A DNA stretch of 32,000 nucleotides from Desulfovibrio subterraneus (lineage in GTDB: Bacteria > Desulfobacterota > Desulfovibrionia > Desulfovibrionales > Desulfovibrionaceae). A model generated the notes under the pieces. That model was not told the origin of the DNA, ran no database searches, and saw only the letters and a program-made list of their open reading frames with translations. A program made the translations under genes and the position numbers. The stretch spans positions 13,574 to 45,573 of the forward strand of contig NZ_BLVO01000013.1 in the NCBI RefSeq assembly GCF_013340285.1. The letters are read 5' to 3'. Each line of letters begins with the position of its first letter. Within the stretch, counting starts at the first letter, position 1. This document shows positions 4,558 to 27,895 of this stretch, in pieces.

Positions 4558-4588
4558 AGGTTCCCCCGGAAAAGCTCCCCGAAGGGGG

Positions 4589-5155
4589 TTAGCGGCCTTC
4601 CGTGGCGGAACTGAGCTCCTGCACGGCCTTTCGGCACAGGGTCTGCGTCAGCATGTTGAGCGAGGTGTCGCAGCCGAAGAAACAGCCGCTGCTTTCCGTC
4701 AAGGAAGCCGCCCAGATCACTTCACCGGTCTTTACATCCATCATGCGCAGGTTCACGCCCACAACAGGGCTCTGATCCAGCCCGCGCTTGTAGCGGAATT
4801 CACTGACTGAGCCGTAGAAGATGGTATCCACACCCAGAGTCTTTCCTGCACGACGGGCAACGGCCTTGTCCATCACGTAATCAAGGTCTTCTTCACCGCC
4901 CTTGAGTGATTCAATCATTGCCGTGGTTTCGAGGAATGCATATCCCTTGAGTCCATACAGTTCCGTGGAAAGAATGTCGCTGACAATGCGTCCCGCATTG
5001 GGGTGGGCAGTCAGGTTGACCAAAGGCAGCACGGCAGCGGTGCGCTCCCCGTCCGGCATGGCGGCGGAATTGAAGAAGTGTTGTTGCGAGGCTGAACAGG
5101 CCGTCAGCGAAATGAGAAGGCACGCGGTCATGATGCAGCGAAAGATGGTGTTCAC
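4589..5155 (-). CDS. Small outer-membrane-type lipoprotein, PelC-like
   Basis: 188-aa ORF with a GTG start preceded by GGGGGA. Lipobox L-T-A-C (MNTIFRCIMTACLLISLTAC). The core (AVLPLVNLT...GSVSEFRYKRGLDQSPVVGVNLRMMDVKTGEVIW) has the flavour of the PelC / TolB-N-like lipoprotein fold. The assignment is from memory of the family, not from a search. Confidence 0.62.
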   Translation of the reverse strand: MNTIFRCIMTACLLISLTACSASQQHFFNSAAMPDGERTAAVLPLVNLTAHPNAGRIVSDILSTELYGLKGYAFLETTAMIESLKGGEEDLDYVMDKAVARRAGKTLGVDTIFYGSVSEFRYKRGLDQSPVVGVNLRMMDVKTGEVIWAASLTESSGCFFGCDTSLNMLTQTLCRKAVQELSSATEGR

Positions 5156-10670: not shown

Positions 10671-11960
10671 TTAGTGGATGGTCTGAATTCTGGGCAGCGA
10701 GCGTACCAGTTGCAGTGCAAGGCGCAGCTGGTTGTCGCGGGTGAGGGCTTCGGTTGCTTCGGGGCTGCGCTTGAAAGCGGGCTTGCCGGATTCGCCGTTG
10801 CCGTTGGGGTTTTCCAGATGCCCGGTCAGGTCCTTCTCGCGCATGAGGCGGCGGGGATGGGCCTTGTCTTCTTCACGGGGTGCTTCAAAGGGCATGAGGA
10901 TATCGGGCTGAATACCCTCTGCCTGAATGGACGTGCCGTTGGGCGTGTAGTAGCGGGCAATGGTCAGCTTGACCGCACCACCGTCGCTCAGGGGAATGAT
11001 GTTCTGCACGGACCCCTTGCCGAAGCTGCGTTCGCCGATGAGCAGAGCGCGCTTCTGGTCGCGCAGGGCGCCAGCCACGATTTCCGAGGCGGAGGCGGAA
11101 CCGGCGTTGATGAGTACGGTCATGGGTACGACAATGTCGGATTCCTGCGCGTGTGCGTTGAATTCACGGCTGTCCTTGCCGCGGCCGCGGATGGAGACAA
11201 CCACGCCTTCGTTCAAGAATGCATCGGCAACGCTGATGGACTGGTCAAGCAGGCCGCCGGGGTTGTCACGCAGGTCAAGGATGATGCCCTGCAGTTCGTG
11301 ATTCTTGGTATATTCGCCGATCTTCTCATAGAGTTCATCGGTGGTGCGTTCGGAGAAGCGCATGAGGCGCACCCAGAGGTAGCCGTCGTCAAGCACGCGG
11401 GTCTTCACGCTGATAAGCGGAATGACGTCGCGCACGAGCTTTACTTCCTTGGGTTCCTTATCGCTCTTGGAGAGTACGGTCAGCATGACCGCAGAGCCCT
11501 TGGGGCCTTTGATTTTGGAAACGGCTTTGCCCAGCGACATCTCCTGCGTGGACTCGCCGTCCACTTCCAGAATCAGGTCGCCGCTCTTGAGACCGCCCTT
11601 CCATGCAGGGGTGTCTTCGATGGGAGCAACTACCTTGAGGATGCCGTTTTCATCCTGGGTGATTTCAATGCCGATGCCGAAGAATTCGCCGGAGGTGGTT
11701 TCCTGCATCTCCTGCTGTTCCTTGGGGTCCATGTAGGTGGAGTGCGGGTCAAGCGACTGCAGCATGCCGCGCATGGCTCCGTCTATCAGGTCCTTACGGC
11801 TGACATCGTTAACGTAGAAGCGCTCAACCATATCCAGCACCTGACTGAAACGCTTGAGCGAATCGAATTTGCTTTGATCTTCTGTGGCCAGTCCGGGCAC
11901 GCAGGAGAAGGCGAGAATTGCCAGAGAGGCCGCAGAGGCGACCCACATTGTCATGCGCAT
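10671..11960 (-). CDS. ctpA: Carboxy-terminal processing protease (S41 family)
   Basis: Contains a PDZ domain plus S41 motifs (GIGIEI, LDLRDNPGG, LINAGSASASEI, GERSFGKGSVQ). I placed the start at the internal ATG at 11960, which has a GGAGGA Shine-Dalgarno and a signal peptide (MRMTMWVASAASLAILA). The track ORF start at 12011 would overlap the upstream gene. Confidence 0.92.
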   Translation of the reverse strand: MRMTMWVASAASLAILAFSCVPGLATEDQSKFDSLKRFSQVLDMVERFYVNDVSRKDLIDGAMRGMLQSLDPHSTYMDPKEQQEMQETTSGEFFGIGIEITQDENGILKVVAPIEDTPAWKGGLKSGDLILEVDGESTQEMSLGKAVSKIKGPKGSAVMLTVLSKSDKEPKEVKLVRDVIPLISVKTRVLDDGYLWVRLMRFSERTTDELYEKIGEYTKNHELQGIILDLRDNPGGLLDQSISVADAFLNEGVVVSIRGRGKDSREFNAHAQESDIVVPMTVLINAGSASASEIVAGALRDQKRALLIGERSFGKGSVQNIIPLSDGGAVKLTIARYYTPNGTSIQAEGIQPDILMPFEAPREEDKAHPRRLMREKDLTGHLENPNGNGESGKPAFKRSPEATEALTRDNQLRLALQLVRSLPRIQTIH

Positions 11961-11989
11961 TACAGATCCTCCGAGAGACTGTATCGTAT

Positions 11990-13165
11990 CTAATTTGAAG
12001 CTGTTAGCCACGGTTCAGGGTTAATGGCTTTTTGGTGAAAACGCAATTCGAAATACAGCCCGGGGCCTTCCACGCGGGGAAAGTACCCGGCTGTACCGAG
12101 CTTCTGTCCTCTTTTCACATCCTGCCCTACAGTGAGATTGCTGTCAGCAAGATATGCATACAACGAATAGTATTCCTTATCATGCATAACGATCACGACG
12201 CGTCCGAAACCGCGCAATATGTCGTTGTGCACGACCTTGCCCGAGGCCACGGTCTGAACAGGAGCGCCGTTCATCAGGGCAATGCCTATGCCGCGCGTGG
12301 GCGGATCGGCCGCGGGGGCATAACGCAATGTCAGCATACCTCGGGCAGGCCACGGCAGGCGGCCCTTGTTCAGGGCGAACTTGCCTTCCGGCTTGTCGGA
12401 TGTCTCCAGACGATAATTGAGATCCTGAATGAGCGAAAGCACGTTTTTGAGCGAGGCTTCCGCGTCTTCCTTCTGTTTGCGGACGTTATTCAGGCGGCTG
12501 TTGTAGGCCAGCTTGTCGCGCAGAATTCTGTCCTTTGATTTGTTGACCGAGGCAAGGCGTTCGCGGGCCTTGCGCTCAAGCTCCTCCTGCTTTTTCAGAA
12601 CGGATGCAATTTCCTGCTGTTGTTCCGCAAGTTCCCTGTTTTTTTCATTTATGGCCGCATACACGCGGGTGGACCATTCGAAACGCCTGTCGCTCTCATG
12701 CCAGTCGGGCATGTTGGCTCCACGTCCGGCACGGCTTTCAATGTACAGCGGCCACATGGCATTGAGCAGTTCTTCCAGTTCTTTTTCGGTCTTGCGGCGT
12801 TTTTGCAGCAGGCGGCCATGGCTCTTTTCCGATTCAGCCTTGTTCTGCTCTATCTCGGCAAGGGCGGCTTCCTGCGAATTGAGGTCGCGTTCCAGCGATT
12901 TGATGCGGTCTTCGGCCGCGGCCAGTTCCTTGTGCAGATCGCGTTCCTTGGCCGTGAGCTTGTTCAGGGTCTGCTCGGTCTTCTTCGCTTTCTGCTTCTG
13001 GTCTTTCAGGTTGGCCTTGATGTCGGAAGGCCCTGCGGCCCGTATGGCAGGTGCAGTAAACAGCAGCATGCCCAGCGTGAGCATGAAGACAAAAACGGCC
13101 GGAATCTTATGAGGTTGCAAGGGCAGAACGGGATGGCGGCTTTGTGGCGGCTGGCTGTGCATCAT
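11990..13165 (-). CDS. envC: Coiled-coil M23/LytM-domain protein, EnvC-like murein hydrolase activator
   Basis: A long coiled-coil region (KKTEQTLNKLTAKERDLHKELAAAEDRIKSLERDL...) is followed by a C-terminal LytM domain. The usual HxH metal motif reads GLYFELR, which is degenerate as in EnvC. I chose the start at 13165 because it forms an ATGA overlap with the upstream stop. The track's longer N-terminus is unsupported. Confidence 0.85.
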   Translation of the reverse strand: MMHSQPPQSRHPVLPLQPHKIPAVFVFMLTLGMLLFTAPAIRAAGPSDIKANLKDQKQKAKKTEQTLNKLTAKERDLHKELAAAEDRIKSLERDLNSQEAALAEIEQNKAESEKSHGRLLQKRRKTEKELEELLNAMWPLYIESRAGRGANMPDWHESDRRFEWSTRVYAAINEKNRELAEQQQEIASVLKKQEELERKARERLASVNKSKDRILRDKLAYNSRLNNVRKQKEDAEASLKNVLSLIQDLNYRLETSDKPEGKFALNKGRLPWPARGMLTLRYAPAADPPTRGIGIALMNGAPVQTVASGKVVHNDILRGFGRVVIVMHDKEYYSLYAYLADSNLTVGQDVKRGQKLGTAGYFPRVEGPGLYFELRFHQKAINPEPWLTASN

Positions 13166-13848
13166 GCCCGGCCTCCGTTCGGATGGGTGTCGAGAAACTC
13201 GGCCAGCGGGCAGTCTTCGCAGCGCGGAGTGCCTTTTTTGCACCAGTCCTTGGCAACGCGCACGATCAGGGCATGGTATTCATTGAAAAGATGGGGGTCG
13301 TGCGGGAGTACATCCATAAAATAGTCGCGCAGGGTGTGATAGTCGGTATCTTCCGGTATCAGACCGTGGCGTGAGTATATGCGCAGCGTGTATGCATCCA
13401 CCACGAAGGTGGGCAGGCCCGCAGCATACAGGGCTATGGAGTCGGCAGTTTCCGGCCCGACGCCCTTGACCGAGAGCAGGGCCGTGCGCGCGGCATTCAC
13501 TTCCATGCTGCCGAGGTTGGCTATGTCTCCGTCGCAGGTGTCCTGCAGCCAGAGCAGGAGCTGCTTCAGCCGCTTTGCCTTCATATTGTAGTAGCCGGAA
13601 GGACGGATGAGCTCTGCCAGTTCTGCGTCCGGCAGGGCGAGCATGGCATCGGGGGCCAGATTGCCGGTGGCTTTGAGGTTGGCGATGGCGCGCTCCACGT
13701 TGCCCCAGTTGGTGTTCTGGGTAAGAATGGCACCCACGGCCACTTCGAAAGGCGTTTCGCCGGGCCACCAATGGCTCGGGCCCAGCCGGTCGAGCATGGA
13801 CTGGTACATGTTGAGGAGGAGGTCTGCACGGCTCATATGGGGTGGCAT
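13162..13848 (-). CDS. Endonuclease III-related HhH-GPD DNA glycosylase family protein
   Basis: Contains AILTQNTNWGNVERAI, the helix-hairpin-helix VKGVGPETADSIALYA, and a C-terminal Cys cluster CKKGTPRCEDC. I chose the start at the ATG at 13848 (MPPHMSRADLL...). The 110-aa N-terminal extension in the track ORF looks non-coding. Confidence 0.82.
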   Translation of the reverse strand: MPPHMSRADLLLNMYQSMLDRLGPSHWWPGETPFEVAVGAILTQNTNWGNVERAIANLKATGNLAPDAMLALPDAELAELIRPSGYYNMKAKRLKQLLLWLQDTCDGDIANLGSMEVNAARTALLSVKGVGPETADSIALYAAGLPTFVVDAYTLRIYSRHGLIPEDTDYHTLRDYFMDVLPHDPHLFNEYHALIVRVAKDWCKKGTPRCEDCPLAEFLDTHPNGGRA

Positions 13849-13999
13849 GCTATCTCTTCCGGACGCGTGTTGCAACAGGCGGGATATTTCCGCGCCGGGA
13901 AGGGAAGGGTTGCCTCCCGCCGGATACGGTATTACTTTACGGCCCACACAGCCTGTTTGTCCTGTTTCGGAACTTCTTTTCGGTGTTATTCCTGATTTT

Positions 14000-14040
14000 G
14001 GTGGCGGATGACGCCACCGGGTCATGCCACCGGTCCATGC
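14000..14040. promoter_or_regulatory. Inverted repeat plus 13-bp tandem direct repeat in the divergent intergenic region upstream of the hgc locus (candidate operator)
   Basis: GGTGGCG-gatga-CGCCACC is a 7-bp perfect inverted repeat at 14000-14018. It overlaps the tandem repeat CACCGGGTCATGC / CACCGGTCCATGC at 14015-14040. Confidence 0.3.
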
Positions 14041-14198
14041 AGTTCCCAAGCTGCCGGGCCATGCTGTCGGAAAACGCCATTCGGAATAGAGCAGCCGTAA
14101 GGATAGGCCGCGCTCAACGCCTTGTCCTGATGTCCGGATGATCGGGCAAATTACCAACGTAACCGCATGACAGGGCATCCGCCAATTCAGAGGACCAT

Positions 14199-14828
14199 GT
14201 GAAGGAACTAGAAACGTTTGTCTCCGTGACTTCTACCGGAGCTGCTACCGAAGCCTCCCCCGTAACATCCTCAGGCTGCGGCTGTTCGAGCCACGACGGA
14301 GGCAAGGGAGGCTGCGCCTGTGCAGAGGCTGCCGGTACGGAAAGCACCGCCTGCCTGTGTGCGGAGAATCCATCTGCCGCTGTTTCCGGTTGCGGCTGTT
14401 CATCGTCGGATGCTTCCCATGGTGGATCAGCCGGTGTGCAGCTCAAAGCCTATGATCCCTTTGCCGCACAGGGTGTCGCGCCGTTTTCCGGTAAAGAGGC
14501 GTCTGCGCCCAAGCCACTTGGCAGTACGCTGAAAATGGCGCCTGAAAAGTTCGCTCAAGAAAACTCCGCTCCAATAACGTCCGCTCCAATAACGTTCGCT
14601 CCGGAAAAGTCTGCTTCGGCTAAGTCCACTTCTGGCGAATCCGCCTGCTGCTGCACCCCGACGCAGAAGCAGGAACTGCGGCCTCTGGAACTTGCCGTCC
14701 CCGCTGCCTCCAAAGGCGGTTCCTGCTGCAGCGAGCAGCCTGCGGCATCCGCGTGCTGTTCCAGCCCCGATCCGTTCATGGCACAATTTTCGCGCGACAC
14801 CGCGTCTCCCGACGCGGAACCGTGCTGA
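14199..14828 (+). CDS. Cysteine-rich low-complexity protein (metallothionein-like CxC / CC(C) motifs), hypothetical
   Basis: 209 codons with a GTG start 4 nt after AGAGGA. It has 16 Cys: GCGC, GCAC, ACLC, GCGC, ACCC, SCC, ACC and a terminal C. No TM segment. It is on the same strand and in the same frame as hgcA, 63 nt upstream. Third-position GC is only moderate, so coding status is uncertain. Confidence 0.45.
   Translation: MKELETFVSVTSTGAATEASPVTSSGCGCSSHDGGKGGCACAEAAGTESTACLCAENPSAAVSGCGCSSSDASHGGSAGVQLKAYDPFAAQGVAPFSGKEASAPKPLGSTLKMAPEKFAQENSAPITSAPITFAPEKSASAKSTSGESACCCTPTQKQELRPLELAVPAASKGGSCCSEQPAASACCSSPDPFMAQFSRDTASPDAEPC
14565..14609 (+). repeat. 15-bp in-frame tandem repeat inside the Cys-rich ORF
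   Basis: TCCGCTCCAATAACG occurs twice (14565-14579 and 14580-14594), followed by a degenerate third unit TTCGCTCCGGAAAAG. This encodes SAPIT-SAPIT-FAPEK. Confidence 0.85.
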
Positions 14829-14840
14829 GGCCCTCCCCCG

Positions 14841-14858
14841 CGACCTGAGGCCAGGTCG
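14841..14858 (+). other. Hairpin between the Cys-rich ORF and hgcA (SECIS-like geometry, or a simple structural element)
   Basis: CGACCTG-AGGC-CAGGTCG: a 7-bp perfect stem with a 4-nt loop. The loop starts 19 nt after the in-frame TGA at 14826-14828. No U-tract follows. Confidence 0.5.
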
Positions 14859-14891
14859 TATGAGCGCGCGGGCTATGCCGTTTATCCCTGT

Positions 14892-15911
14892 GTGACGCAT
14901 TTTGTGGACACTCCCGCAGGTGACGTGCCGAGTATCACGCATGCGTGGGGGCTGCAGGACTGGCTGGGAACCGCGTTTGCGCGTCTGGGCGTGACCCGCA
15001 ACAACTACGCCGTTTCTCCCGGCCTGTATGCCATGGGTAATCCGGATGCGAACTCTCCGGTCATTGTCACCGCAAACTACAAACTCACCTTCGACGCCGT
15101 GCGTAGCGACCTTGCCGGACAGAATCTCTGGATGGTCGTGCTGGATACGCGTGGCATCAACGTGTGGTGCGCGGCAGGCAAGAATCTTTTTTCCACCGCC
15201 GAGGTCATCAAGCGACTGCAGCGGGTGCGGCTTGACCGCGTGGTGAAGCACCGTCGCATCATTCTGCCGCAGCTGGGCGCACCCGGTGTTTCCGCCAAGG
15301 AAGTGCGCCGCGCCACCGGTTTCAGCGTGGTATATGGCCCCGTGCTTTCAGCGGATCTTCCGGCATTTCTGGAATCCGGCATGCAGGCCACGACAGAAAT
15401 GCGTACTGTCCGTTTTCCGCTCAAGGAACGTGCGGTGCTCATTCCTGTGGAAATCATGCTGCTCTGGAAGACGCTGCTGCTTGCCTTTGCCGTCATGTTT
15501 GTCCTTTCGGGCATAGGGCCGGACATCTTCTCCTTCTCCGCTGCGGTGGGCAGGCTTGCGCCGTTTGCGTGGGCAACGCTCTTCGGTGTGCTGGCAGGGC
15601 AGGTTGCCGTGCCGGTTCTGCTGCCGGTGCTGCCTTTCAGGGCCTTTGCCGCCAACGGTGCCTTGGCCGGCGGGGTGGCGGTGCTGCCCATGCTGGCTTG
15701 CGCATGGCCGCTGGCAACATGGCTTGAGCTTGTGGTGCTCGCCGCATGGACGCCCTGTCTCGGATCGTTTCTGGCAATGAACTTCAGCGGGTCCACCCCC
15801 TATACCTCGCCCACGGGCGTGGAATGGGAGATGCGCCGCGCTGTTCCCCTGCAGATTCTTACCGTTGCCGTGTGCCTGTGCCTTTGGGTTGCGGCTGCCT
15901 TCATCGGATAG
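14892..15911 (+). CDS. hgcA: HgcA, corrinoid-binding mercury methyltransferase component with C-terminal 5-TM domain
   Basis: 339 codons. The N-terminal domain carries the diagnostic cap-helix motif GINVWCAAGK (N-V-W-C-A-A-G-K at 15159-15182; the Cys is residue 93 counted from the GTG at 14892), plus VTANYKLTFD and LPQLGAPGVSA. The C-terminal half has about five hydrophobic helices, for example LIPVEIMLLWKTLLLAFAVMFVL and LQILTVAVCLCLWVAAAFIG. Confidence 0.93.
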   Translation: MTHFVDTPAGDVPSITHAWGLQDWLGTAFARLGVTRNNYAVSPGLYAMGNPDANSPVIVTANYKLTFDAVRSDLAGQNLWMVVLDTRGINVWCAAGKNLFSTAEVIKRLQRVRLDRVVKHRRIILPQLGAPGVSAKEVRRATGFSVVYGPVLSADLPAFLESGMQATTEMRTVRFPLKERAVLIPVEIMLLWKTLLLAFAVMFVLSGIGPDIFSFSAAVGRLAPFAWATLFGVLAGQVAVPVLLPVLPFRAFAANGALAGGVAVLPMLACAWPLATWLELVVLAAWTPCLGSFLAMNFSGSTPYTSPTGVEWEMRRAVPLQILTVAVCLCLWVAAAFIG

Positions 15912-15920
15912 GGGGGGCGT

Positions 15921-16217
15921 ATGAAAGATTTTCGCTATATCGATGGTGTGGCCAGCATTGCACTGGAAGCCAAAACCTGTGTGGGCTGCGGCGTGTGCGT
16001 GCAGGTATGTCCGCATCAGGTGTTTACCGTACAAAAGGGCAAGGCCGTGTTTGCAGACCGCAATGCCTGCATCGAGTGTGGCGCATGCGCCAAAAACTGC
16101 CCGGTGGACGCCATACTCGTTACCCCCGGTGTGGGCTGTGCTTCGCTCATGATCAAGCGCTGGCTGCATGAGAAGGGCATTCCCGTCCGCCTTGGCGGCG
16201 GCACCGGCTGCTGCTAG
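15921..16217 (+). CDS. hgcB: HgcB, 2x[4Fe-4S] ferredoxin partner of HgcA
   Basis: 98 aa, starting 9 nt after the hgcA stop and preceded by a G7 Shine-Dalgarno-like run. Two CX2CX2CX3CP motifs (CVGCGVCVQVCP, CIECGACAKNCP), an extra Cys at residue 73 (GVGCAS), and a C-terminal vicinal pair GTGCC. Confidence 0.93.
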   Translation: MKDFRYIDGVASIALEAKTCVGCGVCVQVCPHQVFTVQKGKAVFADRNACIECGACAKNCPVDAILVTPGVGCASLMIKRWLHEKGIPVRLGGGTGCC

Positions 16218-16306
16218 GGGAGGCTTACCGGTCTCCGGCTTCAGGTCGATATGGCAGGCGAGAATAGTGCGGCAAGAATAACCAACATAATTTTATTGGT
16301 ATGATT

Positions 16307-16334
16307 GAAGCGCTGTGTTTGCACACAGCGCTTC
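16307..16334 (+). terminator. Stem-loop downstream of hgcB (probable terminator; weak U-tract)
   Basis: 12-bp perfect stem GAAGCGCTGTGT / ACACAGCGCTTC with loop TTGC, followed by TGGTTAAT. Confidence 0.5.
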
Positions 16335-16459
16335 TGGTTAATGACAAAGCTGTGTTCTCAGTAAAACCACATCTCCGTTAAGCCGGAGCTGAAATTCAAA
16401 AACGGATTTTCATCGCTTATACGAGGTGCAGGAACGTTAGGTTCCTGCCCGGCGGAGCC

Positions 16460-16505
16460 AAAAAAAACCAGAAATGACCTCGTCAGCAGTCTGGTTTTTT
16501 CTTTT
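16460..16505. terminator. Bidirectional Rho-independent terminator (closes hrpB on the minus strand; has a U-tract on the plus strand as well)
   Basis: AAAAAAAACCAGA ... TCTGGTTTTTTCTTTT. The CCAGA/TCTGG stem is extended by A/T pairing, with runs of A upstream and T downstream. Confidence 0.65.
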
Positions 16506-16542
16506 ACATCCCCGCAGGATGTTCCTTCAAGCCATTCCTGAA

Positions 16543-19149
16543 TTACCCCTGCTGCATGCGTTTCGTTACATGGCGGGTGGGCCGGGCCGTGGTCGGGTCT
16601 TCGGGCCACGGGTGTCTGGGGTAGCGGCCACGCATTTCCGCCCGCACGGCAGGGTAGCCGTTTTTCCAGAAGGAGACGAGGTCGCGGGTGACCTGCAGCG
16701 GTCTTCCGGCTGGTGAGAGCAGGTGTACCAGCAGCGGGAACCGGCCACCTGCGATGGCAGGTGTTTCCTTTGCACCGAACATTTCCTGCAGTTTGACCGG
16801 CAGGGTCGGGCCGCCCTGTTCCGTATAGTCCAGCCGGATGCGGGAACCGGAAGGTACCTCAAGATGGGTGGGAGCATCCCTGTCCAGCCGTTGCTGCATG
16901 GGCCAGTCGAGCAGTGCGGTGATGGCGGCGCACAGGTCCAGAGACTTGAACTGGCTGCGGCGGGTTATGCCGTTGAGGAATGGGCCGAGCCACTGCGGGA
17001 GCGTGTCGAGCAGGGCGGTATCGGAAAGATCGGGCCAGACGGATTCCCACGCGCTGGTTGTTTCGTCCTTCGTCTCGCAGCCTGCCGCATCCACGGCGCG
17101 CAGGAATTGTATTCTGGCTCGCAGCGCTGTGGCTTCCGCTGTCCACGGGAGGCAGTGCAGCCCGATGGAACGTATCCCTTCCACCACGACATCGGTCACA
17201 TCCGCGCTGCCTGCGTCCGCCAGCGGGGCATCCGCTAATATGAGCGCGCCAAGACGCTTCTGCGAACGGGCCGCCACGGCTTCGGTCCTGCTGTCCCACA
17301 CCACGAACGAGCCTTGCGTTACGCGGTCTGCAAACAATTCTTCCAGCAGGTCGCTGCCAACGGGAGCCGCCCGCCATATGCGCGCCCGTGCGGCGTTGCC
17401 ATCCAGCTCTCCCACGGCGAGAAAGGATTCACGTGCAAGGGGATCTTCCGGAGGCAGGTAGGCTGTCTTGCCACCGGAAAGGCGGAAGGTGCCGTTGCCG
17501 CGCTGCTGGGCGATGCGGTCGGGGTAGGCAAGGGCCAGGCACTCTCCGGCCGCTTCGGGATCGGCCCGTCTGAATGCGGCGTCGGGGATGGCGTGGCGGA
17601 CTGTGCGCATGATGTGTTGCACCGTGTCGGCCATGCGGTTGCGGCCTCCGCTCATGGCGCGTTCCGGCGTGCCGGATTGCGACTGATCGGATTGCGGCTG
17701 CGTTAGGCCAGCGCATTCCGCCATGCGATGACGCATGTCCGCTCCCGTCTGTCTGCTGTCGCGGTCGGAAAGAAGCGCGGCAACAACACAGGCCGTGCCG
17801 CCTTCGCCTGAGCGTGCCGCCGTGAGAACCATGTGTCCGAGGCGCGGATGCAGGGGCAGAGAAAGCAGCTCAGAGCCATGGGGTGTTATGCGCAGGGCCT
17901 CGTCCAGTGCGCCAAGGTCGCGGAGCAGGGTGCAGGCCTGCTGGTAATTTCCTTGCGGAGGCGGCGTGAGCCACGGCAGGGCAAGTGCTCCGTCATATCC
18001 GGCAATGCCCCATGCGGCCAGCTCAAGCACAAGTGCTGCAAGGTCGGCTTCGGCGATTTCCGGTGCGGCAAAGGAGCGCATGGAATGTTCTTCTGCCACA
18101 TCCCACAGACGGTAGCAGGTGCCGGGTTCCAGACGTCCGGCACGGCCCTGCCGCTGGGTTGCGGCGGCGAGCGATACCCGTTCCGTCACCAGCCGCGTCA
18201 TGCCGCTGCCCGGATCGAAACGGGGCAGACGGGAAAGTCCGCAATCCACGACCACGCGCACGCCCTCGATGGTCAGGGACGTTTCCGCAATACTGGTTGC
18301 AAGCACCACCTTGCGTGTGCCTGCCGGTGCCGGTGTAATGGCGGCGTCCTGCTCCGATGCGCTGAGGTCTCCGTAGAACGGATGGACGCTCACATTCTCC
18401 GGCAGGGTGGTGCTTTCGAGCATGGCGGCGATGCGGCGTATTTCTCCGGCACCGGGGAGAAATACGAGAACGGAGCCCGTGTCATTGGCAAGGGCGTGCC
18501 GGATGACGGAAGCGGCGTGGGCATCATCAAGATGTACGCCGGAAGACTGCATGTGCCGACGGGGTGGCGGAACGTGGCGCACTTCTACTGGGTAAGATCG
18601 TCCCTCGCTGGAAATGACGGGGCAGGGTGTGCCGTCCCTGCCCAGCAGGGAGGCAACGGGGGCGCAGTCCAACGTGGCGGACATGACAAGCAGGCGCAGG
18701 TTGTCGCGCAGGGCGGCCTGCGATTCCGTACACAGGGCAAGGCCGAGGTCGGCGTGGATGCTGCGCTCATGAAATTCGTCGAAGATGATGATGCCGTACC
18801 CGGAAAGTTCGGGGTCTGCCTGCAGCAGGCGCGTGAGTACGCCTTCCGTCACCACTTCTATGCGGGTGGCTGCGGAAACACGGGTTTCGTGGCGAATGCG
18901 GTAGCCAACGGTTCTGCCCACCTCTTCCCCCAGAGCGCGGGCCATGAATCCGGCTGCCGCGCGGGCGGCAATGCGGCGGGGTTCAAGCACGAGGACACGC
19001 CGTTCTCCCAGCCAGCCCGCACTGAGCAGGGCAAGGGGAACGCGGGTTGTCTTACCTGCGCCGGGCGGGGCATGGAGCAGGGCATTCGGCGTATGCTCAA
19101 GGCTCGTGAGCAGATCGGGCAGTATGGTGTCTATGGGGAGTATATGCAT
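16543..19149 (-). CDS. hrpB: ATP-dependent RNA helicase HrpB (DEAH-box)
   Basis: 868 aa. Walker A APPGAGKTT, DEFHERS (DEAH-type), SATL, TSIAETSLTIEGV and QRQGRAGR, plus the HrpB-type C-terminal domain. Confidence 0.93.
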   Translation of the reverse strand: MHILPIDTILPDLLTSLEHTPNALLHAPPGAGKTTRVPLALLSAGWLGERRVLVLEPRRIAARAAAGFMARALGEEVGRTVGYRIRHETRVSAATRIEVVTEGVLTRLLQADPELSGYGIIIFDEFHERSIHADLGLALCTESQAALRDNLRLLVMSATLDCAPVASLLGRDGTPCPVISSEGRSYPVEVRHVPPPRRHMQSSGVHLDDAHAASVIRHALANDTGSVLVFLPGAGEIRRIAAMLESTTLPENVSVHPFYGDLSASEQDAAITPAPAGTRKVVLATSIAETSLTIEGVRVVVDCGLSRLPRFDPGSGMTRLVTERVSLAAATQRQGRAGRLEPGTCYRLWDVAEEHSMRSFAAPEIAEADLAALVLELAAWGIAGYDGALALPWLTPPPQGNYQQACTLLRDLGALDEALRITPHGSELLSLPLHPRLGHMVLTAARSGEGGTACVVAALLSDRDSRQTGADMRHRMAECAGLTQPQSDQSQSGTPERAMSGGRNRMADTVQHIMRTVRHAIPDAAFRRADPEAAGECLALAYPDRIAQQRGNGTFRLSGGKTAYLPPEDPLARESFLAVGELDGNAARARIWRAAPVGSDLLEELFADRVTQGSFVVWDSRTEAVAARSQKRLGALILADAPLADAGSADVTDVVVEGIRSIGLHCLPWTAEATALRARIQFLRAVDAAGCETKDETTSAWESVWPDLSDTALLDTLPQWLGPFLNGITRRSQFKSLDLCAAITALLDWPMQQRLDRDAPTHLEVPSGSRIRLDYTEQGGPTLPVKLQEMFGAKETPAIAGGRFPLLVHLLSPAGRPLQVTRDLVSFWKNGYPAVRAEMRGRYPRHPWPEDPTTARPTRHVTKRMQQG

Positions 19150-22064: not shown

Positions 22065-22352
22065 ATTGCATTAATTCGAATGGATATGAAAATAAGTGCA
22101 AAATTAAAAACCAAATTGATGTTTTCCATTAAAACTTTGATGTAAAGTTGACGAAAATGGTCTGTGTGCGCTAGAAAAACTGCAGCTTGACCACACGGGA
22201 TTTGATCAGGTCTGCGCAGAATGCATGAGCAGGCAGAACCTACGTGTGTCTGCTCATTGTCTATGTTTCCGTCGCTGTGGTATTATGCCGGACCGTTCCG
22301 GTGCGGCCGCGGAAAAGAACGACGCCACGCTTTCTTTGAAGGAGACGAGAGT

Positions 22353-24152
22353 ATGCAGCTGGATGTGAACAACATTAAAACGTTGGACCCCAAGGATCAT
22401 CCTGACTGGGAAGTCGCGCAGGACGCCGAATCCCGCATGAAGACCATATATAAGCTTGGTGACGAGATGGGCCTTGAGGAGCGCGAGCTGCTGCCCTATG
22501 GTCACTACATGGGCAAAATTGATTACCGCAGCGTGCTCAAGCGCCTTGCGGACAAGCCTAACGGCAAGTTCGTGAACGTAACCGCCATCAACCCCACACC
22601 GCTGGGCGAAGGCAAGTCCACCACCACCATCGGCCTGGTGCAGGGCCTCGGCCGCAGGGGCAAAAAGGCTTCTGCCGCCATCCGCCAGCCCTCCGGCGGC
22701 CCCACCATGGGGGTGAAAGGCTCCGCCGCAGGCGGCGGCCGCTCGCAGTGCATTCCGCTCACGCCGTTTTCTCTCGGCTTCACCGGCGACATTAACGCCA
22801 TCATGAACGCCCACAACCTTGCCATGACCGCGCTTACCGCGCGCATGCAGCATGAGCGCAACTATTCCGACGAAAAGCTGCTCAAGCTTTCCGGCATGCC
22901 GCGCCTTGACGTGGACCCCACCCGCATCTCCATGGGCTGGGTCATAGACTACTGTGCGCAGGCGCTGCGTAACATCGTCATCGGCATGGACGGCGTGAAC
23001 GGTGCGCAGGACGGCTACATGATGCGCTCCAAGTTCGATATCGCCGTATCGTCCGAAGTCATGGCCATTCTTGCCGTTTCCAAGGACCTGAAGGACCTGC
23101 GCGAGCGCATGGGCAAGATCATCATGTGCTACGACAAGTTCGGCAAGCCGCTCACCACCAAGGATTTCGAGGTGGATGGCGCCATGACCGCATGGCTTGT
23201 GGATGCCGTGAACCCCAACCTTATCCAGACGCTCGAAGGCCAGCCCGTTATCGTGCATGCCGGTCCCTTCGCCAACATCGCCATCGGCCAGAGCTCCATC
23301 ATCGCCGATCAGGTGGGTCTCAAACTTTCCGACTATCATGTCACGGAATCCGGCTTCGGTGCCGACATCGGCTACGAGAAGTTCTGGAACCTCAAGTGCC
23401 ACTACAGCGGCCTTACGCCCGATGCCTCGGTTGTCGTGGCCACGGTGCGCGCGCTCAAGTGTCATGGCGGTGCGCCCATGCCCGTCCCCGGTAAGAAGCT
23501 GCCGGAAGCCTATACCACCGAGAACGTGGAATGGGTGGAAAAGGGCTGCGCCAACCTGCTGCACCATGTGAACATCGTGAAGAAATCCGGTGTATCCCCC
23601 GTGGTGTGCATCAACGCCTTTGTCACGGACACCCCGAACGAGATCAGAAAGATCCGCGAACTGTGCGAGGCCGCCGGTGCCCGCGTGGCTGTTTCCAAGC
23701 ACTGGGAATACGGCGGCGAAGGAGCGCTTGAGCTGGCAGATGCCGTTATGGACGCCTGCAACGACAAGACTACCTTCACCCCGCTGTATGACTGGTCCAT
23801 GCCTATGCGTCAGCGTATCGAAAAGGTGGCAACGGAAGTCTACGGCGCAGACGGCGTGGATTATTCATTTGAAGCCAAGGCTCGTCTCGAATCCATCGAG
23901 AACGATACCGAGCTTTCCAAGCTTGGCCTGTGCATGGTCAAGACGCACCTCTCGCTTTCCGACGATCCCACCCTCAAGGGTGTACCCAAGGGCTGGAGGC
24001 TCAAAGTGCGCGATGTGCTCACCTTCGGCGGGGCCGGATTCGTGGTGCCTGTGGCCGGTTCCATATCCCTCATGCCGGGAACGGGGTCAAACCCCTCGTT
24101 CAGGCGCATAGACGTGGATACGGATACGGGCCGCGTGGAAGGATTGTTCTAA
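22353..24152 (+). CDS. fhs: Formate--tetrahydrofolate ligase
   Basis: 599 aa from the ATG at 22353 (GAAGGAGA Shine-Dalgarno). Contains the P-loop [24 protein letters not shown] and [11 protein letters not shown]. The track ORF start at 22221 is an upstream artefact. Confidence 0.97.
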
Positions 24153-24154
24153 GA

Positions 24155-24186
24155 GAACGCCGGGGACAGCAATGTCTCCGGCGTTT
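24155..24186 (+). terminator. Stem-loop after fhs (probable terminator)
   Basis: GAACGCCGGGGACA-GCAA-TGTCTCCGGCGTTT (one G-U pair), followed by CTGCTG. The U-tract is weak. Confidence 0.45.
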
Positions 24187-24365
24187 CTGCTGTGCAGAGC
24201 AGGCCGGTGTGCCTCCTCACCCGCCGGCCTGCCTCATGCATTCTGTCGTACCTTCACAGCCCGTTCACAGACTCTTCTCGGTCCCTTGCGGGTGCGCATC
24301 CCGTGCGGATGGTGTACCCTTGTCTCGGGCCGAAAGGGCTGTACCTTGGCTGAGCAAATTGCGGG

Positions 24366-24394
24366 TTGACAGGGTGTCGCGTCTGGGCAATACC
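24366..24394 (+). promoter_or_regulatory. Possible sigma70 promoter for folD
   Basis: Consensus -35 TTGACA at 24366-24371, a 17-nt spacer, then a weak -10 AATACC. About 45 nt upstream of the folD ATG. Confidence 0.3.
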
Positions 24395-24439
24395 GTGCGC
24401 GGCACGACATCATACATATTTACGTCACGGGAGCCTGCC

Positions 24440-25354
24440 ATGAGCGCGGAAATTATCAGCGGCACCGACATGCGTACCGCCATTCTGGAAGAACTTGCCT
24501 CTGAAGTTGAGGCAATGAAGGCCAAGCACGGCAAGGTTCCGGGGCTGGTCACCATTCTGGTGGGTGAAAACCCCGCCTCGGTCAGCTATGTCACCCTGAA
24601 GGTGAAAACAGCCCTCAAGCTGGGCTTTCACGAAATTCAGGACAGCCAGCCCGAGTCCATTTCAGAAGAGGAGCTTCTCGCCCTCATCGAACGGTACAAT
24701 CAGGACCCGGATATTCATGGCATTCTGGTGCAGCTGCCCCTGCCCAAGCACATCAACGAAGAAAAGGTCATCTACGCCATCAATCCTGACAAGGACGTGG
24801 ACGGCTTTCACCCCGTCAACCTCGGCCGCATGGTCATAGGCGGCGACAACGGCGGGTTCCTTCCCTGCACGCCTGCGGGCATTCAGGAAATGATCGTGCG
24901 TTCCGGTACCGAGACCAGCGGTGCGGAAGTGGTTGTTGTGGGCCGCTCCAACATCGTGGGCAAGCCCATTTCCGTCATGATGGGCCAGAAGGGCCGTGGC
25001 GCGAACAGCACCGTCACCATGGTGCACACCCGCACCCATGACATTGCCGAACACTGCAAGCGTGCCGATATTCTTATCGTTGCCGCCGGTGTTCCCGGTC
25101 TGGTGAAGCCCGACTGGATCAAGCCCGGTGCCACCGTTATCGACGTGGGCGTGAACCGCGTGGGTACCAGCACCACGGGCAAGGCCATTCTTTCCGGCGA
25201 TGTGGATTTTGCCGAGGCCTGCAAGGTTGCCGGCAAGATCACGCCTGTTCCCGGCGGCGTGGGTCCCATGACCATTGCCATGCTGATGAAGAACACCGTA
25301 AAGTCGGCCTGGATGCATCTTGAACGCACAATGGCCGACACCCTGCCCAGATAG
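24440..25354 (+). CDS. folD: Bifunctional 5,10-methylene-tetrahydrofolate dehydrogenase / 5,10-methenyl-tetrahydrofolate cyclohydrolase
   Basis: 304 aa from the ATG at 24440. Contains PGLVTILVGENPASVSYV, GILVQLPLP, VVVGRSNIVGKP and PVPGGVGPMTIAMLM. The track ORF (from 23930) overlaps the end of fhs and is too long. Confidence 0.96.
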   Translation: MSAEIISGTDMRTAILEELASEVEAMKAKHGKVPGLVTILVGENPASVSYVTLKVKTALKLGFHEIQDSQPESISEEELLALIERYNQDPDIHGILVQLPLPKHINEEKVIYAINPDKDVDGFHPVNLGRMVIGGDNGGFLPCTPAGIQEMIVRSGTETSGAEVVVVGRSNIVGKPISVMMGQKGRGANSTVTMVHTRTHDIAEHCKRADILIVAAGVPGLVKPDWIKPGATVIDVGVNRVGTSTTGKAILSGDVDFAEACKVAGKITPVPGGVGPMTIAMLMKNTVKSAWMHLERTMADTLPR

Positions 25355-25364
25355 TATGTTTCAG

Positions 25365-25403
25365 CGCCGCCCCGCAGACGCGGGGCGGCGTATTCCTTTC
25401 TTT
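25365..25403 (+). terminator. Rho-independent terminator or attenuator between folD and the FDH genes
   Basis: CGCCGCCCCGC-AGAC-GCGGGGCGGCG: an 11-bp perfect stem followed by TATTCCTTTCTTT. Confidence 0.6.
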
Positions 25404-25415
25404 ACCGGAGAGCCG

Positions 25416-25946
25416 ATGAGCTGTTGCAATCATTCGCATGGCGTTGCTTCGGGCTGCTGCGGAACCGCGGAAAACGATTCCGAAATCACCCCCGAACAGT
25501 GGGCAGAGGTGCACGCCATCATCGCCCGTCACAAGGAAACTCCGGGTGCGCTCATCACCGTGCTGCGCGAGGCGCAGGGCGTGGTGGGATACTTCCCGAT
25601 CGAGCTTCTGGACTGCATTGCCGAGGGCATGAACATTCCTGCCAGCGACGTGTTTGGCGTGGTTTCGTTTTATTCCCTGTTTTCGCTCAACCCCAAGGGC
25701 CGTCACACCATCAAGGTGTGCACGGGCACTGCCTGCTACGTGAAGGGCATTCGCGAGGTCATCAACCGCATTGCCTCGGAATACGGCATTCGCGAGGGGG
25801 AAACCACCGAGGACCGCCGCTTTGACCTTGAAGGCGTGCGCTGTCTTGGTGCCTGCGGCCTTGCGCCTGTCATGGTTGTCGGGGAAGATACGCACGGAGC
25901 CGTATCTGCCGACAGAGTGCTTGAACTGCTCAAGAAGTACACCTAG
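25416..25946 (+). CDS. NuoE/HndA/HydC-like thioredoxin-fold [2Fe-2S] subunit of a soluble NAD(P)-linked formate dehydrogenase
   Basis: Start at 25416 with a GGAGAG Shine-Dalgarno. NuoE cluster ligands appear in context (KVCTGTACYVKG ... RCLGACGLAPVM). It has an unusual N-terminus, MSCCNHSHGVASGCCG. Confidence 0.9.
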   Translation: MSCCNHSHGVASGCCGTAENDSEITPEQWAEVHAIIARHKETPGALITVLREAQGVVGYFPIELLDCIAEGMNIPASDVFGVVSFYSLFSLNPKGRHTIKVCTGTACYVKGIREVINRIASEYGIREGETTEDRRFDLEGVRCLGACGLAPVMVVGEDTHGAVSADRVLELLKKYT

Positions 25947-25954
25947 GGGGCTGC

Positions 25955-27841
25955 ATGACGGTACAACATGATAACGCTTGCTGCTGTACAGCCGCCCGCC
26001 GTCTGACGGTGGACGACCTTGCAGTCATGCGCGAAGAGTATGCGGCCCGCCTGCATGCGCCGAACATGCGGCACATCTTTATCTGCGGCGGCACGGGCTG
26101 CCATGCCACCGGCAGCATAGCGGTGAAGAACCGCCTTGTGGAAGAAGTGGCCGCGCGCGGCCTGACGGATACCGTGCGTATTGTGGAAACGGGCTGTAAC
26201 GGCTTTTGCGCGCTCGGCCCGCTGCTGCTGGTGCATCCGGAGAACATCTTTTACCAGAAGCTTGCTGCTGATGACATTCCCGAACTCGTGGAAGAGCAGC
26301 TTGTGCACGGCAGGCAGGTGGAACGCCTGCTGTATCGTGACCCGCAGACAAAAAAGCCCATTCCGCATTTCGGCGATATTCCTTTTTTCGCCCGCCAGCA
26401 GCCGTGGACCCTGCGCAACAAGGGCGTGATCAACCCTGAATCCGTCGAGGACTACATAGGCCGCGACGGGTATCGCGGCACGGCCAGAGCCCTGCTGGAA
26501 ATGACGCCCGAATCCATTGTGCAGGAAATGCTCACCTCCGGCCTTCGCGGTCGCGGCGGGGCAGGGTTCCCCACGGGGATGAAGTGGCAGTTTGCCCAGC
26601 GCAGCGCGGGCGATGTGAAATACGTGCTCTGCAACGCGGATGAGGGCGACCCCGGTGCCTTCATGGACCGCTCCATTCTGGAAGCGGACCCCCATGCCGT
26701 GCTGGAAGGCATGATCATCGCGGCCCGCGCCATTAACGCGTATCAGGGCTACATCTACTGTCGTTCCGAATATCCCCTGGCCGTGCGCCGTGTGCAGATA
26801 GCCATAGAACAGGCCCGTGCACTTGGTCTGCTCGGTCACAATATTCTCGGTTCCGGCTTTGATTTCGACGTGGAAATCTATCAGGGCGCTGGCGCTTTCG
26901 TCTGCGGCGAAGAAACCGCGCTCATGCGATCCATCGAGGGCAAGCGCGGCATGCCGCGTCCGCGTCCTCCGTTCCCTGCGCACAAGGGGCTGTGGGAAAA
27001 ACCCACCATCCTCAATAACGTGGAAACGCTGGCCAACGTTGCGCAGATTATGCTCAACGGCGGTGCGTGGTACGCCTCTGTGGGAACGGAAAAGAGCAAG
27101 GGTACCAAGGTGTTCGCGCTCTCCGGCGATGTGAACAACATCGGCCTTGTGGAAGTGCCCATGGGTACCCCCCTGCGCAGCATTGTCTATGACATCGGCG
27201 GCGGCATTCCCAAAAAGCGCAAGCTCAAGGCCGTGCAGCTCGGCGGTCCTTCCGGCGGGTGTATTCCCGAGGCATATCTTGATGTCATCATCGACTATGA
27301 AGAGATAGCCAAGGTCGGCGCCATCATGGGCTCCGGCGGTGCCATTGTCATGGACGACCGCACTTGCATGGTGGATATGGCCCGCTTCTTCCTTGATTTC
27401 ATTCAGGACGAAAGCTGCGGCAAGTGTACTCCCTGCCGGGAAGGCACGCGCCGCCAGCTTGAACTGCTGGAAAAGATATGCGCAGGCAAGGGCGAAGATG
27501 GCGATATCGAGCTGCTGGAAGAGCTTTCTTCCATGATTACGGAATCGGCTCTGTGCGGGCTGGGGCAGACGGCGTCCAACCCTGTGCTTTCCGCCCTGCG
27601 GTATTTCCGCGATGAGTTCGATGCCCACATCAAGCAGAAGAAGTGTCCTGCCAAGCGCTGCGCCGCGCTGCTCGATTTCACGGTCAACGCGGACAAGTGC
27701 AAGAAGTGCGGCAAGTGCTTCCAGACCTGCCCTGTGCAGGCCATTGCGTGGCAGAAAAAGGAAGTGGCTGTGATCAATCGCGATATCTGTGTGCGCTGCA
27801 TGAGCTGCTTCGAGGCATGCCCCTTTGATGCCATAGACTAG
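25955..27841 (+). CDS. NuoF/HndC/HydB-like flavoprotein subunit (FMN, NAD(P)H; N-terminal [2Fe-2S] domain and C-terminal 2x[4Fe-4S])
   Basis: 628 aa. Contains GRGGAGFPTGMKW (FMN site), DEGDPGAFMDR and ESCGKCTPCREG (N3 cluster). A C-terminal ferredoxin domain has CKKCGKCFQTCP and CVRCMSCFEACP. An N-terminal thioredoxin-like domain has CGGTGCHA...CNGFCALGP. Confidence 0.92.
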   Translation: MTVQHDNACCCTAARRLTVDDLAVMREEYAARLHAPNMRHIFICGGTGCHATGSIAVKNRLVEEVAARGLTDTVRIVETGCNGFCALGPLLLVHPENIFYQKLAADDIPELVEEQLVHGRQVERLLYRDPQTKKPIPHFGDIPFFARQQPWTLRNKGVINPESVEDYIGRDGYRGTARALLEMTPESIVQEMLTSGLRGRGGAGFPTGMKWQFAQRSAGDVKYVLCNADEGDPGAFMDRSILEADPHAVLEGMIIAARAINAYQGYIYCRSEYPLAVRRVQIAIEQARALGLLGHNILGSGFDFDVEIYQGAGAFVCGEETALMRSIEGKRGMPRPRPPFPAHKGLWEKPTILNNVETLANVAQIMLNGGAWYASVGTEKSKGTKVFALSGDVNNIGLVEVPMGTPLRSIVYDIGGGIPKKRKLKAVQLGGPSGGCIPEAYLDVIIDYEEIAKVGAIMGSGGAIVMDDRTCMVDMARFFLDFIQDESCGKCTPCREGTRRQLELLEKICAGKGEDGDIELLEELSSMITESALCGLGQTASNPVLSALRYFRDEFDAHIKQKKCPAKRCAALLDFTVNADKCKKCGKCFQTCPVQAIAWQKKEVAVINRDICVRCMSCFEACPFDAID

Positions 27842-27895
27842 CCGCGAGTAACGCTGAGGGAGCCCCTGACTTGGTCAGAGTATGTATGGAGTAGA

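Follow-up and report, generated by a model that had tools for sequence, protein, structure and literature searches.

The stretch of DNA considered here, called the window, comprises 32,000 nucleotides (nt) of Desulfovibrio subterraneus (contig NZ_BLVO01000013.1 of assembly GCF_013340285.1) and carries hgcA, the gene for the protein that produces methylmercury; it is as methylmercury that mercury builds up in food webs. Upstream of hgcA as it is usually called lies an open reading frame (ORF) rich in cysteine (Cys) codons, which ends at a single UGA. The evidence presented here is sequence comparison, and it concerns the question of whether this UGA is read as selenocysteine (Sec, U), which would make the Cys-rich ORF and hgcA one gene. 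The features involved are these:

14199 to 15911, plus strand: proposed full-length hgcA coding sequence, with one in-frame UGA as Sec; 570 amino acids (aa).
14199 to 14828, plus strand: Cys-rich leader ORF; GTG start, 209 aa, 16 Cys, ending in GAA CCG TGC TGA.
14820 to 14834, plus strand: putative PCUGP motif, CCG TGC TGA GGC CCT, aligning to PCCGP of Cys-form homologues.
14826 to 14828, plus strand: UGA, the proposed Sec codon for residue 210; the column is at least 90% Cys in homologues and UGA in 26 distinct sites.
14829 to 14891, plus strand: linker GPPPRPEARSYERAGYAVYPC; 21 codons formerly deemed intergenic, proposed to encode the arm that leads from the Cys-Sec (CU) pair to the beta-strand with which the corrinoid domain opens.
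14840 to 14859, plus strand: candidate hairpin of the bacterial selenocysteine insertion sequence (SECIS) type; stem 14840-14847/14852-14859, loop AGGC at 14848-14851.
14892 to 15911, plus strand: hgcA as usually called; GTG start, 339 aa, with a corrinoid-binding domain and a membrane domain.

Between position 14199 and the stop codon of hgcA (15909-15911), the TGA at 14826-14828 is the only in-frame stop, and 14199 and the GTG at 14892 share a frame (each 0 mod 3). The preliminary description of this DNA had placed the Cys-rich ORF and hgcA in one frame, with a single TGA between them that directly follows a TGC and is itself followed by 21 open codons, and the locus proved to be arranged in just this way. 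The linker is open and contains no ATG, GTG or TTG, so that the 63 nt between the TGA and the GTG at 14892 are translatable solely by read-through of the UGA. Among the ORFs delivered by gene callers, P0001-P0003 stop at the TGA, and P0004 has 339 aa.

Relatives of this gene were collected by several routes. When the read-through product was used as query in a protein search, 5473 HgcA relatives came back, of which 120 were listed; in this list, the closest proteins (324-348 aa) are truncated calls, and over 100 of the rest (376-465 aa) are ORFs without interruption. Species-representative genomes were scanned for HgcA as well, which yielded L001 (96% identity) and L002 (76%), both metagenome-assembled genomes (MAGs) labelled Halodesulfovibrio, as well as L003 and L004, which are of the Desulfobulbaceae type and 47-48% identical. 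The loci L005/6, L007/8, L009 (Pseudodesulfovibrio indicus) and L010 were fetched by way of truncated HgcA calls, and L091 by way of the truncated leader ORF P0002. L092 is Desulfovibrio mangrovi (CP104208.1, 22102-28494), an isolate with a complete genome and the same synteny as the window. A metagenome scan added 80 further HgcA loci, and in these and the relatives taken together, 26 distinct sites have C-UGA and 51 have the Cys form.

The existence of a selenoprotein form of HgcA with PCUGP has already been published, and this core of the mechanism is not new. Haft and Gwadz (bioRxiv 10.1101/2022.07.06.499078) lengthened 20 HgcA genes at the 5′ end, each across one UGA, to products of 363-400 aa that share an invariant PCUGP, and also noted occasional homologues with CC in place of CU, and a 2026 review places HgcA (NF040863) among the selenoproteins with a CU motif. 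The window resembles the published proteins in that the UGA lies within PCUGP, at 14820-14834 and N-terminal to the formerly called start, in the CC of the Cys forms, in the adjacent hgcB and in its probably Sec-competent genome. It is unlike them in its length (570 aa, as against the 363-400 aa they describe), in the 209 codons that precede the Sec and in the 16 Cys of the leader. It also has the single UGA of the published architecture, in contrast to the two found in L002, L007/8 and D. mangrovi L092, and can be regarded as a variant that is still a member of the group. What is added to the earlier work (bioRxiv 10.1101/2022.07.06.499078) is the 16-Cys long leader of a 570-aa product, the conservation of this leader, relatives with two Sec, and quantitative support for the SECIS of HgcA.

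The homologues place the UGA at a conserved cysteine. Among the matches listed, 114 homologues of at least 350 aa have CCG(P/S/T/A) in an uninterrupted ORF, and the consensus of the Cys forms reads D(D/E)xPCCGP(P/K)xGPxSSxxE(K/R)PGYxxxxFV(D/E)xF...TPxGxVP. Its segment PCCGPxxGPxSSxxE(K/R)PGY aligns to PC-U-GPPPRPEARSYERAGY of the window, and the consensus aligns with DAEPC-U-GPPPRPEARSYERAGYAVYPCVTHFVDTPAGDVP residue for residue, so that homology runs on both sides of the Cys aligned to the UGA. In an alignment of 77 sequences, the Sec column (C210) and the preceding Cys are each at least 90% Cys, and the linker residues G225, Y226, V232 and F235 are nearly invariant. The Cys forms (P0009-P0123, 376-465 aa) have in common with the window a Cys leader (often with a KPLEMLPM-like start), D-x-PCCGP, the E(K/R)PGY arm, FV(D/E)xF and the corrinoid domain; the window differs from them by the proposed Sec in place of Cys, a position-specific hairpin and a far longer leader (208 aa and 16 Cys in this comparison). 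Seven further loci (L048, L050, L054, L069, L072, L076 and L086) hold HgcA-like genes with another N-terminus, CCAPPSxK..PCCGGGSPSKxEIRY, in which the CC pair adjoins the first beta-strand and the PGY arm is lacking.

At the level of nucleotides, L003 and L004 have the uninterrupted ORF CCGGPPPPKSSPYARPGYTLCSFVE, with Cys in place of the TGA of the window; L001 and L002 read AEPC-TGA-GPPPRPEARSYERAGYAV in frame with hgcA and also keep the hairpin, and L005-L010 and L091 all have PC-TGA-GP in frame. When the linker is compared with those of L001, L091 and L002, every difference is a synonymous third-position change, up to a common AV (GCC GTN). The supposedly intergenic 63 nt is, judging from these alignments, a conserved part of HgcA. 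The preliminary description had proposed that orthologous loci be examined for frame, for further stops and for the codon at the position of the TGA, and the outcome favoured read-through on each count: L001, L002, L005-L010, L091, L092 and 17 metagenome loci keep the frame, each with one UGA or with two UGAs that have a hairpin each, and the Cys forms have Cys (PCCGP) at the position. Altogether, 26 distinct sequences from isolates, MAGs and metagenomes, with HgcA 50-96% identical, have C-UGA-G at the same alignment position. Three options had been named for the in-frame TGA, namely Sec read-through giving an N-terminally extended HgcA of about 570 aa, a recently split gene, and coincidence; the comparative data support the first, and the other two are ruled out because C-UGA is conserved across clades whose HgcA proteins are just 50-60% identical. 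On the strength of these comparisons, it is almost certain that the TGA which separates the Cys-rich ORF from hgcA encodes selenocysteine.

The hairpin behind the UGA had been drawn as a perfect 7-base-pair (bp) stem, CGACCUG-AGGC-CAGGUCG; it folds as drawn, and a G-U pair lengthens the stem to 8 bp. The hairpin (14840-14859) begins 11 nt past the TGA, with its loop 19 nt past the UGA, and in isolation has a folding free energy of -12.4 kcal/mol (z = -4.2 against shuffles); segments of 45-121 nt around the site give z scores of just -0.2 to -1.9 (-0.2 to -1.6 for those of 45-69 nt), which is unremarkable for GC-rich DNA. The bacterial SECIS consensus comprises a loop of 3-9 nt, an upper stem of 4-16 bp, 16-37 nt from the UGA to the loop, a minimum free energy (MFE) of at most -7.5 kcal/mol, and a G at loop position 1 or 2 (or both) with G or U after it (PMC13188914). 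The hairpin agrees with all four constraints of this model (a 4-nt loop on an 8-bp stem, G at loop position 2, a distance of 19 nt and -12.4 kcal/mol), and the loops of other HgcA clades (AGGU, AGUU, CGUGCC, GGUCCA, GUC and GUU) in many cases have GGUC, so that the absence of GGUC here, which had been held against the hairpin, is no obstacle. Like the SECIS of the Escherichia coli fdhF type, it is a stem-loop inside the coding sequence just past the UGA (the spacer is 11 nt here and 10 nt in fdhA of the window); it is unlike that type in its loop, AGGC and not GGUC, and in having no evident bulged U. As for the direct repeat of 8 bp that had been noticed as bracketing the segment, CTGAGGCC is indeed present at 14825-14832 and 14845-14852, exactly two occurrences in the window and as many as chance predicts; its counterpart in L002 and L007 reads TTGAGGTC, and because it is not kept there the repeat is deemed incidental. 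The hairpin was also considered as an intrinsic terminator or attenuator, and this was dropped, since terminator prediction gave nothing in the interval from the leader to hgcA and the hairpin has no U-run behind it.

A perfect stem of at least 5 bp with a loop starting 18-20 nt downstream was found at 25 of the 26 HgcA C-UGA sites, as against 10 of the 51 Cys-form (UGY) sites, for which loop starts of 15-24 nt were allowed (Fisher p=3e-11, a value that overstates independence because the CU and CC sets are phylogenetically related). Stems of at least 6 bp are present at 20/26 UGA sites and 4/47 Cys-form sites. The difference in global MFE between the CU and CC forms is modest (-16.6 vs -13.5 kcal/mol, p=0.002), which is why the position-specific hairpin test was used instead. 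The stems themselves vary between clades: GCGACCUG/CAGGUCGU in the clade of the window, GGACCUG/CAGGUCC in L010, GACCCC/GGGGUC in the Pseudodesulfovibrio type, GAUCCC/GGGAUC in L022, AACCCCG/CGGGGUU in L080, and UCCAC/GUGGA and GCCAC/GUGGC in loci of the GPKPPPRSSG type (L038 and L060). In an ungapped alignment of the 26 sites the hairpins fall into three registers, and pairs were counted in the 17 sequences that are in the register of the window: 92.4% of cells are paired, compared with 71% in shuffles (0/500 reach the observed value) and at most 52% with the partner slid, and both sides have changed in 5 of the 7 stem pairs. Between the window and L009 the position of the hairpin is the same and the codon phase is shifted by 1 nt, with RPEARS and DPRAGV encoded, respectively; as the hairpin is kept despite the different codon phase, conservation at the protein level fails to explain it. 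From these signals we infer that the hairpin at 14840-14859 would serve as a SelB-binding bacterial SECIS.

That the organism decodes UGA as Sec had been proposed on account of fdhA, which lies in the same window:

29143 to 29145 and 29156 to 29176, plus strand: Sec codon and SECIS hairpin of fdhA; 8 bp, loop GGUCU, -15.4 kcal/mol.

The fdhA hairpin has a stem of 8 bp, where 7-8 bp had been noted, and its loop lies 18 nt past the UGA, as noted. The TIGR01591 profile matches fdhA with positions 1-128 before the TGA and positions 130-672 after it, i.e., it is split at position 129, exactly at the TGA; this bears out the proposal, as a genuine Sec site in fdhA means that the organism decodes UGA as Sec. 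The gene belongs to a one-carbon cluster (22221-30789), 6-15 kb downstream of hgcAB, which comprises formate-tetrahydrofolate ligase (22221-24152), FolD (~24410-25354), a NuoF-like subunit (25955-27841) and the Sec-containing FdhA (27985-30789), whose N-terminal Fe-S domain is NuoG-like.

The long leader is the part of the gene that sets the window apart, and its features are the following:

14189 to 14194, plus strand: Shine-Dalgarno-like AGAGGA, 4 nt before the GTG at 14199.
14199 to 14825, plus strand: proposed Cys-rich N-terminal leader; 209 codons, 16 Cys, ending in DAEPC.
Example leader peptide: ELETFVSVTSTGAATEASPVTSSGCGCSSHDGGK.
14564 to 14608, plus strand: 15-nt tandem repeat in the leader; TCCGCTCCAATAACG twice plus one diverged copy, with SAPIT-type units.

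The Cys are ordered as four CxC pairs, CCC, CC and CC, and finally the Cys that precedes the proposed Sec. Substitutions, counted pairwise among the window, L001 and L091 (three comparisons), fall largely on codon position 3: they number 15/12/16 at position 1, 13/11/7 at position 2 and 40/33/45 at position 3; the indels relative to L001 and L091 are of 5 or 15 codons, all multiples of 3, and 16/16 Cys are kept. L091 and L001 have other copy numbers of the 15-nt repeat, in each case without a shift of frame, and this makes up part of the indel lengths. A start signal, consisting of a Shine-Dalgarno-like purine run 4-7 nt before (G/A)TG-AA(G/A), is present in the window, L001, L091, L092, L002, L005, L007, L009 and L010, and the starts across these nine loci read VKELETF, VKLFNLF, VKPLDLM, VKPFEPL, VKSLPPL, MKPLHIL and MNGLEDK; in the window, nothing comparable precedes the ATG at 14776 or the GTG at 14892. 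Cys-form HgcA proteins among the matches listed have leaders within one ORF as well, with a median of 48 aa and 3 Cys and a maximum of 105 aa and 7 Cys. Searches of Pfam and NCBIfam with the leader gave no match, and a word-indexed search merely three near-identical truncated ORFs; an exhaustive HMMER search added P0124 (D. mangrovi) and P0125, the latter of which was set aside as a spurious low-complexity match. The Cys-rich ORF is, on this comparative evidence, a conserved, translated N-terminal leader of HgcA in a clade of the Desulfovibrionaceae. Another Sec-form HgcA, L022 (PPCM01000158.1; L022:1300-1430), has a leader rich in proline and cysteine in which four CC pairs precede the CU site (QCCPPPVQEPCCPPPAQDSCCAPISLDTCCPPPSVDDDAPCU), from which it appears that Cys-rich leaders arose in more than one Sec-form lineage.

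In several relatives the leader contains a second Cys-UGA of its own:

L002, 3656: second leader Cys-UGA, GGCUAPPSRPEFRS.
L007, 2204 (= L008): second leader Cys-UGA, APCUAPPSRPEVRS.
L092, 3391: second leader Cys-UGA, GFCUAPPAGSGF.

In D. mangrovi (L092), a 130-aa "hypothetical protein" ends in GFC-TGA, and the frame then runs on across another stretch rich in Cys, as far as DAEPC-TGA-GPPPRPEARS and HgcA; the full reading is 604 aa long and includes 2 Sec, and its leader has 20 Cys. Its leader is 52% identical to that of the window along the full length, and the rest of the protein 86%. The first UGA of L092 is followed by a hairpin of its own, GGGUCCG-GUUU-CGGAUCC, with the loop 19 nt downstream, and L002 and L007/8 have a second module, PCUAPPSRPE(F/V)RS, likewise with its own hairpin; each of these second leader C-UGA sites has a hairpin of 6-7 bp with the loop 19 nt downstream. 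A C-UGA with a SECIS-type hairpin inside the leader is sensible solely if the leader is translated in the frame of hgcA, and the HgcA proteins of L002, L007/8 and L092 are predicted to be double-selenocysteine proteins. The gene table of L092 lists a 130-aa hypothetical protein, N1030_00100 (3001-3393), and a 377-aa HgcA (3682-4815), leaves 3394-3681 unannotated, and has a 62-aa ORF called on the opposite strand.

The identity of the downstream part as HgcA is confirmed by NF040863 (412.4 bits vs a cut-off of 275), in which residues 243-568 correspond to profile positions 1-324 of 325; the profile covers the core alone and leaves the Sec site unaddressed. The cap-helix INVWCAAGK with the cobalamin-ligating Cys is present, and N90-K97 is invariant in the alignment. 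AlphaFold2, run on 14829-15908 with 76 homologues, gave a mean predicted local distance difference test (pLDDT) score of 87 and a predicted template modelling (pTM) score of 0.74, with a confident beta-hairpin that begins at the Val of the GTG at 14892 (V232), a Rossmann-like corrinoid domain and five long helices (213-359). According to this prediction, a flexible arm would hold the Cys-Sec pair some 20 residues ahead of the folded domain. Next to hgcA lies hgcB:

15921 to 16217, plus strand: hgcB ferredoxin; NF040864, 118.9 bits vs a cut-off of 99; ends in GTGCC.

In HgcB, residues ~68-74 (16120-16140) include GVGC, the Cys form, while HgcA of the same locus would be the Sec form; Sec takes the place of this Cys (GVGU for GVGC) in about 6% of HgcB proteins (bioRxiv 10.1101/2022.07.06.499078).

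Taken together, these comparisons make it very probable that hgcA at 14199-15911 is one gene, with the UGA at 14826 read as Sec by means of the hairpin at 14840-14859, and that its product is a 570-aa selenoprotein. Translation would start at the GTG at 14199 behind the Shine-Dalgarno site and pass through the 209-codon Cys-rich leader. The hairpin, acting as SECIS, would then recruit SelB-GTP-Sec-tRNA(Sec), so that the UGA at 14826 is translated as selenocysteine, and 21 more codons would be followed by the corrinoid-binding and membrane domains. The proposed recoding step draws on what is established about Sec insertion in bacteria, together with the comparative signals described above. In the finished protein, the CU pair and the thiols of the leader may capture Hg(II) or release methylmercury, with transfer to or from the methyl-cobalamin site, as soft-metal chemistry, the CC tail of HgcB and other CU proteins suggest. 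The selenoproteins SaoL, SaoB, SaoC and some MerT likewise have Cys next to Sec or to another Cys in a flexible segment, a pair that is proposed as a soft-metal ligand, and the C-terminus of HgcB is a Cys-Cys mercury-binding tail; both are analogies of mechanism, and no homology is claimed. The C-terminus of MerA, again an analogy of mechanism with no homology claimed, is likewise a Cys-Cys mercury-binding tail.

Several observations weigh against this interpretation, apart from the relatedness of the CU and CC sets. The evidence of the window alone could not settle the Sec reading, because the wider folding is unremarkable and Rfam, searched at gathering thresholds over the whole window, gave no match, so that no curated family confirms the hairpin; it is the comparative data that settle the matter, and Rfam, which missed the genuine fdhA SECIS too, is uninformative on bacterial SECIS elements. 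The genes selA, selB, selC and selD are absent from the 32-kb window, and no tRNA was found in it. In the literature, no protein-level or selenium-labelling evidence was found for any HgcA. The 16 residues that directly follow the Sec have an AlphaFold2 pLDDT of less than 50, and the placement of the arm near the active site is of low confidence. The GTG at 14892 is conserved, though its Val belongs to the conserved FV(D/E)xF motif, and internal initiation may occur there. Finally, HgcA of strain ND132, made from the old short start, methylates mercury together with HgcB in E. coli lysate, which makes the CU arm dispensable for in vitro catalysis and implies that a short form may function. It is more likely that the arm is an accessory for substrate acquisition or product handling than that it has an essential catalytic role.

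The same observations can be arranged into two separate genes, a 209-aa Cys-rich protein that stops at the UGA at 14826 and an HgcA that starts independently at the GTG at 14892, with the hairpin serving as a coupling, stability or regulatory element. Gene callers annotate the locus in this manner (P0001-P0003 end at the TGA, and P0004 has 339 aa), the GTG at 14892 exists, and the short form of ND132 is active in vitro; Sec insertion is also seldom fully efficient, so a terminated by-product of 209 aa is likely in any case, and it is plausible that partial termination at the UGA would free such a Cys-rich peptide. Two genes are nevertheless very improbable, given that the linker lacks a start codon yet evolves synonymously and is homologous to a segment inside the uninterrupted ORF of Cys-form HgcA, that no Shine-Dalgarno site precedes 14892 and the downstream starts chosen by the callers vary among relatives, and that the hairpin goes with UGA and not with UGY. 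That the TGA is a nonsense mutation, a sequencing error or the product of a chance frame has in its favour that a shared frame has a prior of 1 in 3 and that folding energies over wider segments are ordinary; with C-UGA-G at one alignment position in 26 distinct sequences, this explanation is refuted and retains a negligible probability.

A different arrangement would keep the Sec and move the start, for example to the ATG at 14776 (MAQFSRDTASPDAEPCU), which would give an HgcA of ~376 aa; the Cys-rich part upstream would then be a small gene of its own or go untranslated. The minimal extensions in the literature are equally short (363-400 aa in total), and the Prokaryotic Genome Annotation Pipeline (PGAP) assigns D. 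mangrovi a 377-aa HgcA and a separate upstream hypothetical protein. A late start is improbable all the same: the leader shows coding-type evolution in the frame of hgcA, with in-frame indels only and all Cys kept, and a Shine-Dalgarno site with a GTG-AAG-type start stands at the 5′ end of the leader in 9 loci, whereas no such site precedes the ATG at 14776, whose Met is absent in D. mangrovi (PDPFISPLS). The additional C-UGA with a SECIS-type hairpin in the leaders of L002, L007/8 and L092 also speaks against it, as do the shorter Cys-rich leaders that Cys-form homologues hold within a single ORF.

The surroundings of the gene are conserved. The order CtpB-like S41 protease, M23 peptidase, HhH-GPD glycosylase, hgcA and hgcB is kept in the window (10671-19149), L005, L007, L091 and L092, and in the window and L092 an HrpB helicase comes after these on the opposite strand. 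The HhH-GPD glycosylase ORF (13162-14178, minus strand) has 338 aa, and its homologues in L005, L007, L091 and L092 are called with 211-228 aa; the ORF of the window is probably over-extended at its 5′ end, and with a shorter glycosylase the divergent intergenic DNA ahead of the hgcA leader would come to several hundred bases, where the gap between the ORF and the leader is now 14179-14198. In loci of the Pseudodesulfovibrio type, such as L009, an ArsR-type regulator lies directly upstream of hgcA, and the clade of the window is without one.

The Cys-Sec pair in most HgcA proteins is a recent and purely bioinformatic claim, to which the window lends independent support through coding-type evolution across the UGA, a UGA-linked hairpin that is mostly absent from Cys forms, and covariation in the stem. 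Surveys of hgcA and annotation pipelines truncate or split such genes, as with the 130-aa hypothetical protein and the 377-aa HgcA of D. mangrovi, and heterologous constructs that begin at the old hgcA start leave out the Cys-Sec arm. A further and tentative idea, on balance unlikely, is that HgcA in a small clade of the Desulfovibrionaceae (the window, D. mangrovi and related MAGs called Halodesulfovibrio) has acquired a thiol/selenol-rich antenna of 200-240 aa, with 16-20 Cys in CxC, CC and CCC arrangements (plus, in some members, another Cys-Sec module and a SECIS for it), which would scavenge very low levels of Hg(II) and relay it by ligand exchange to the PCUGP arm that feeds the methyl-cobalamin site. 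If this were true, these organisms would be unusually efficient, selenium-dependent methylators whose HgcA is hidden by its annotation as two or three ORFs. For the family as a whole, the N-terminal part of HgcA can be much larger and more thiol-rich than has been described, and relatives can hold two Sec; with its complete genome and a predicted double-Sec, long-leader HgcA, the cultured D. mangrovi would be a good organism in which to study the selenium dependence of mercury methylation.

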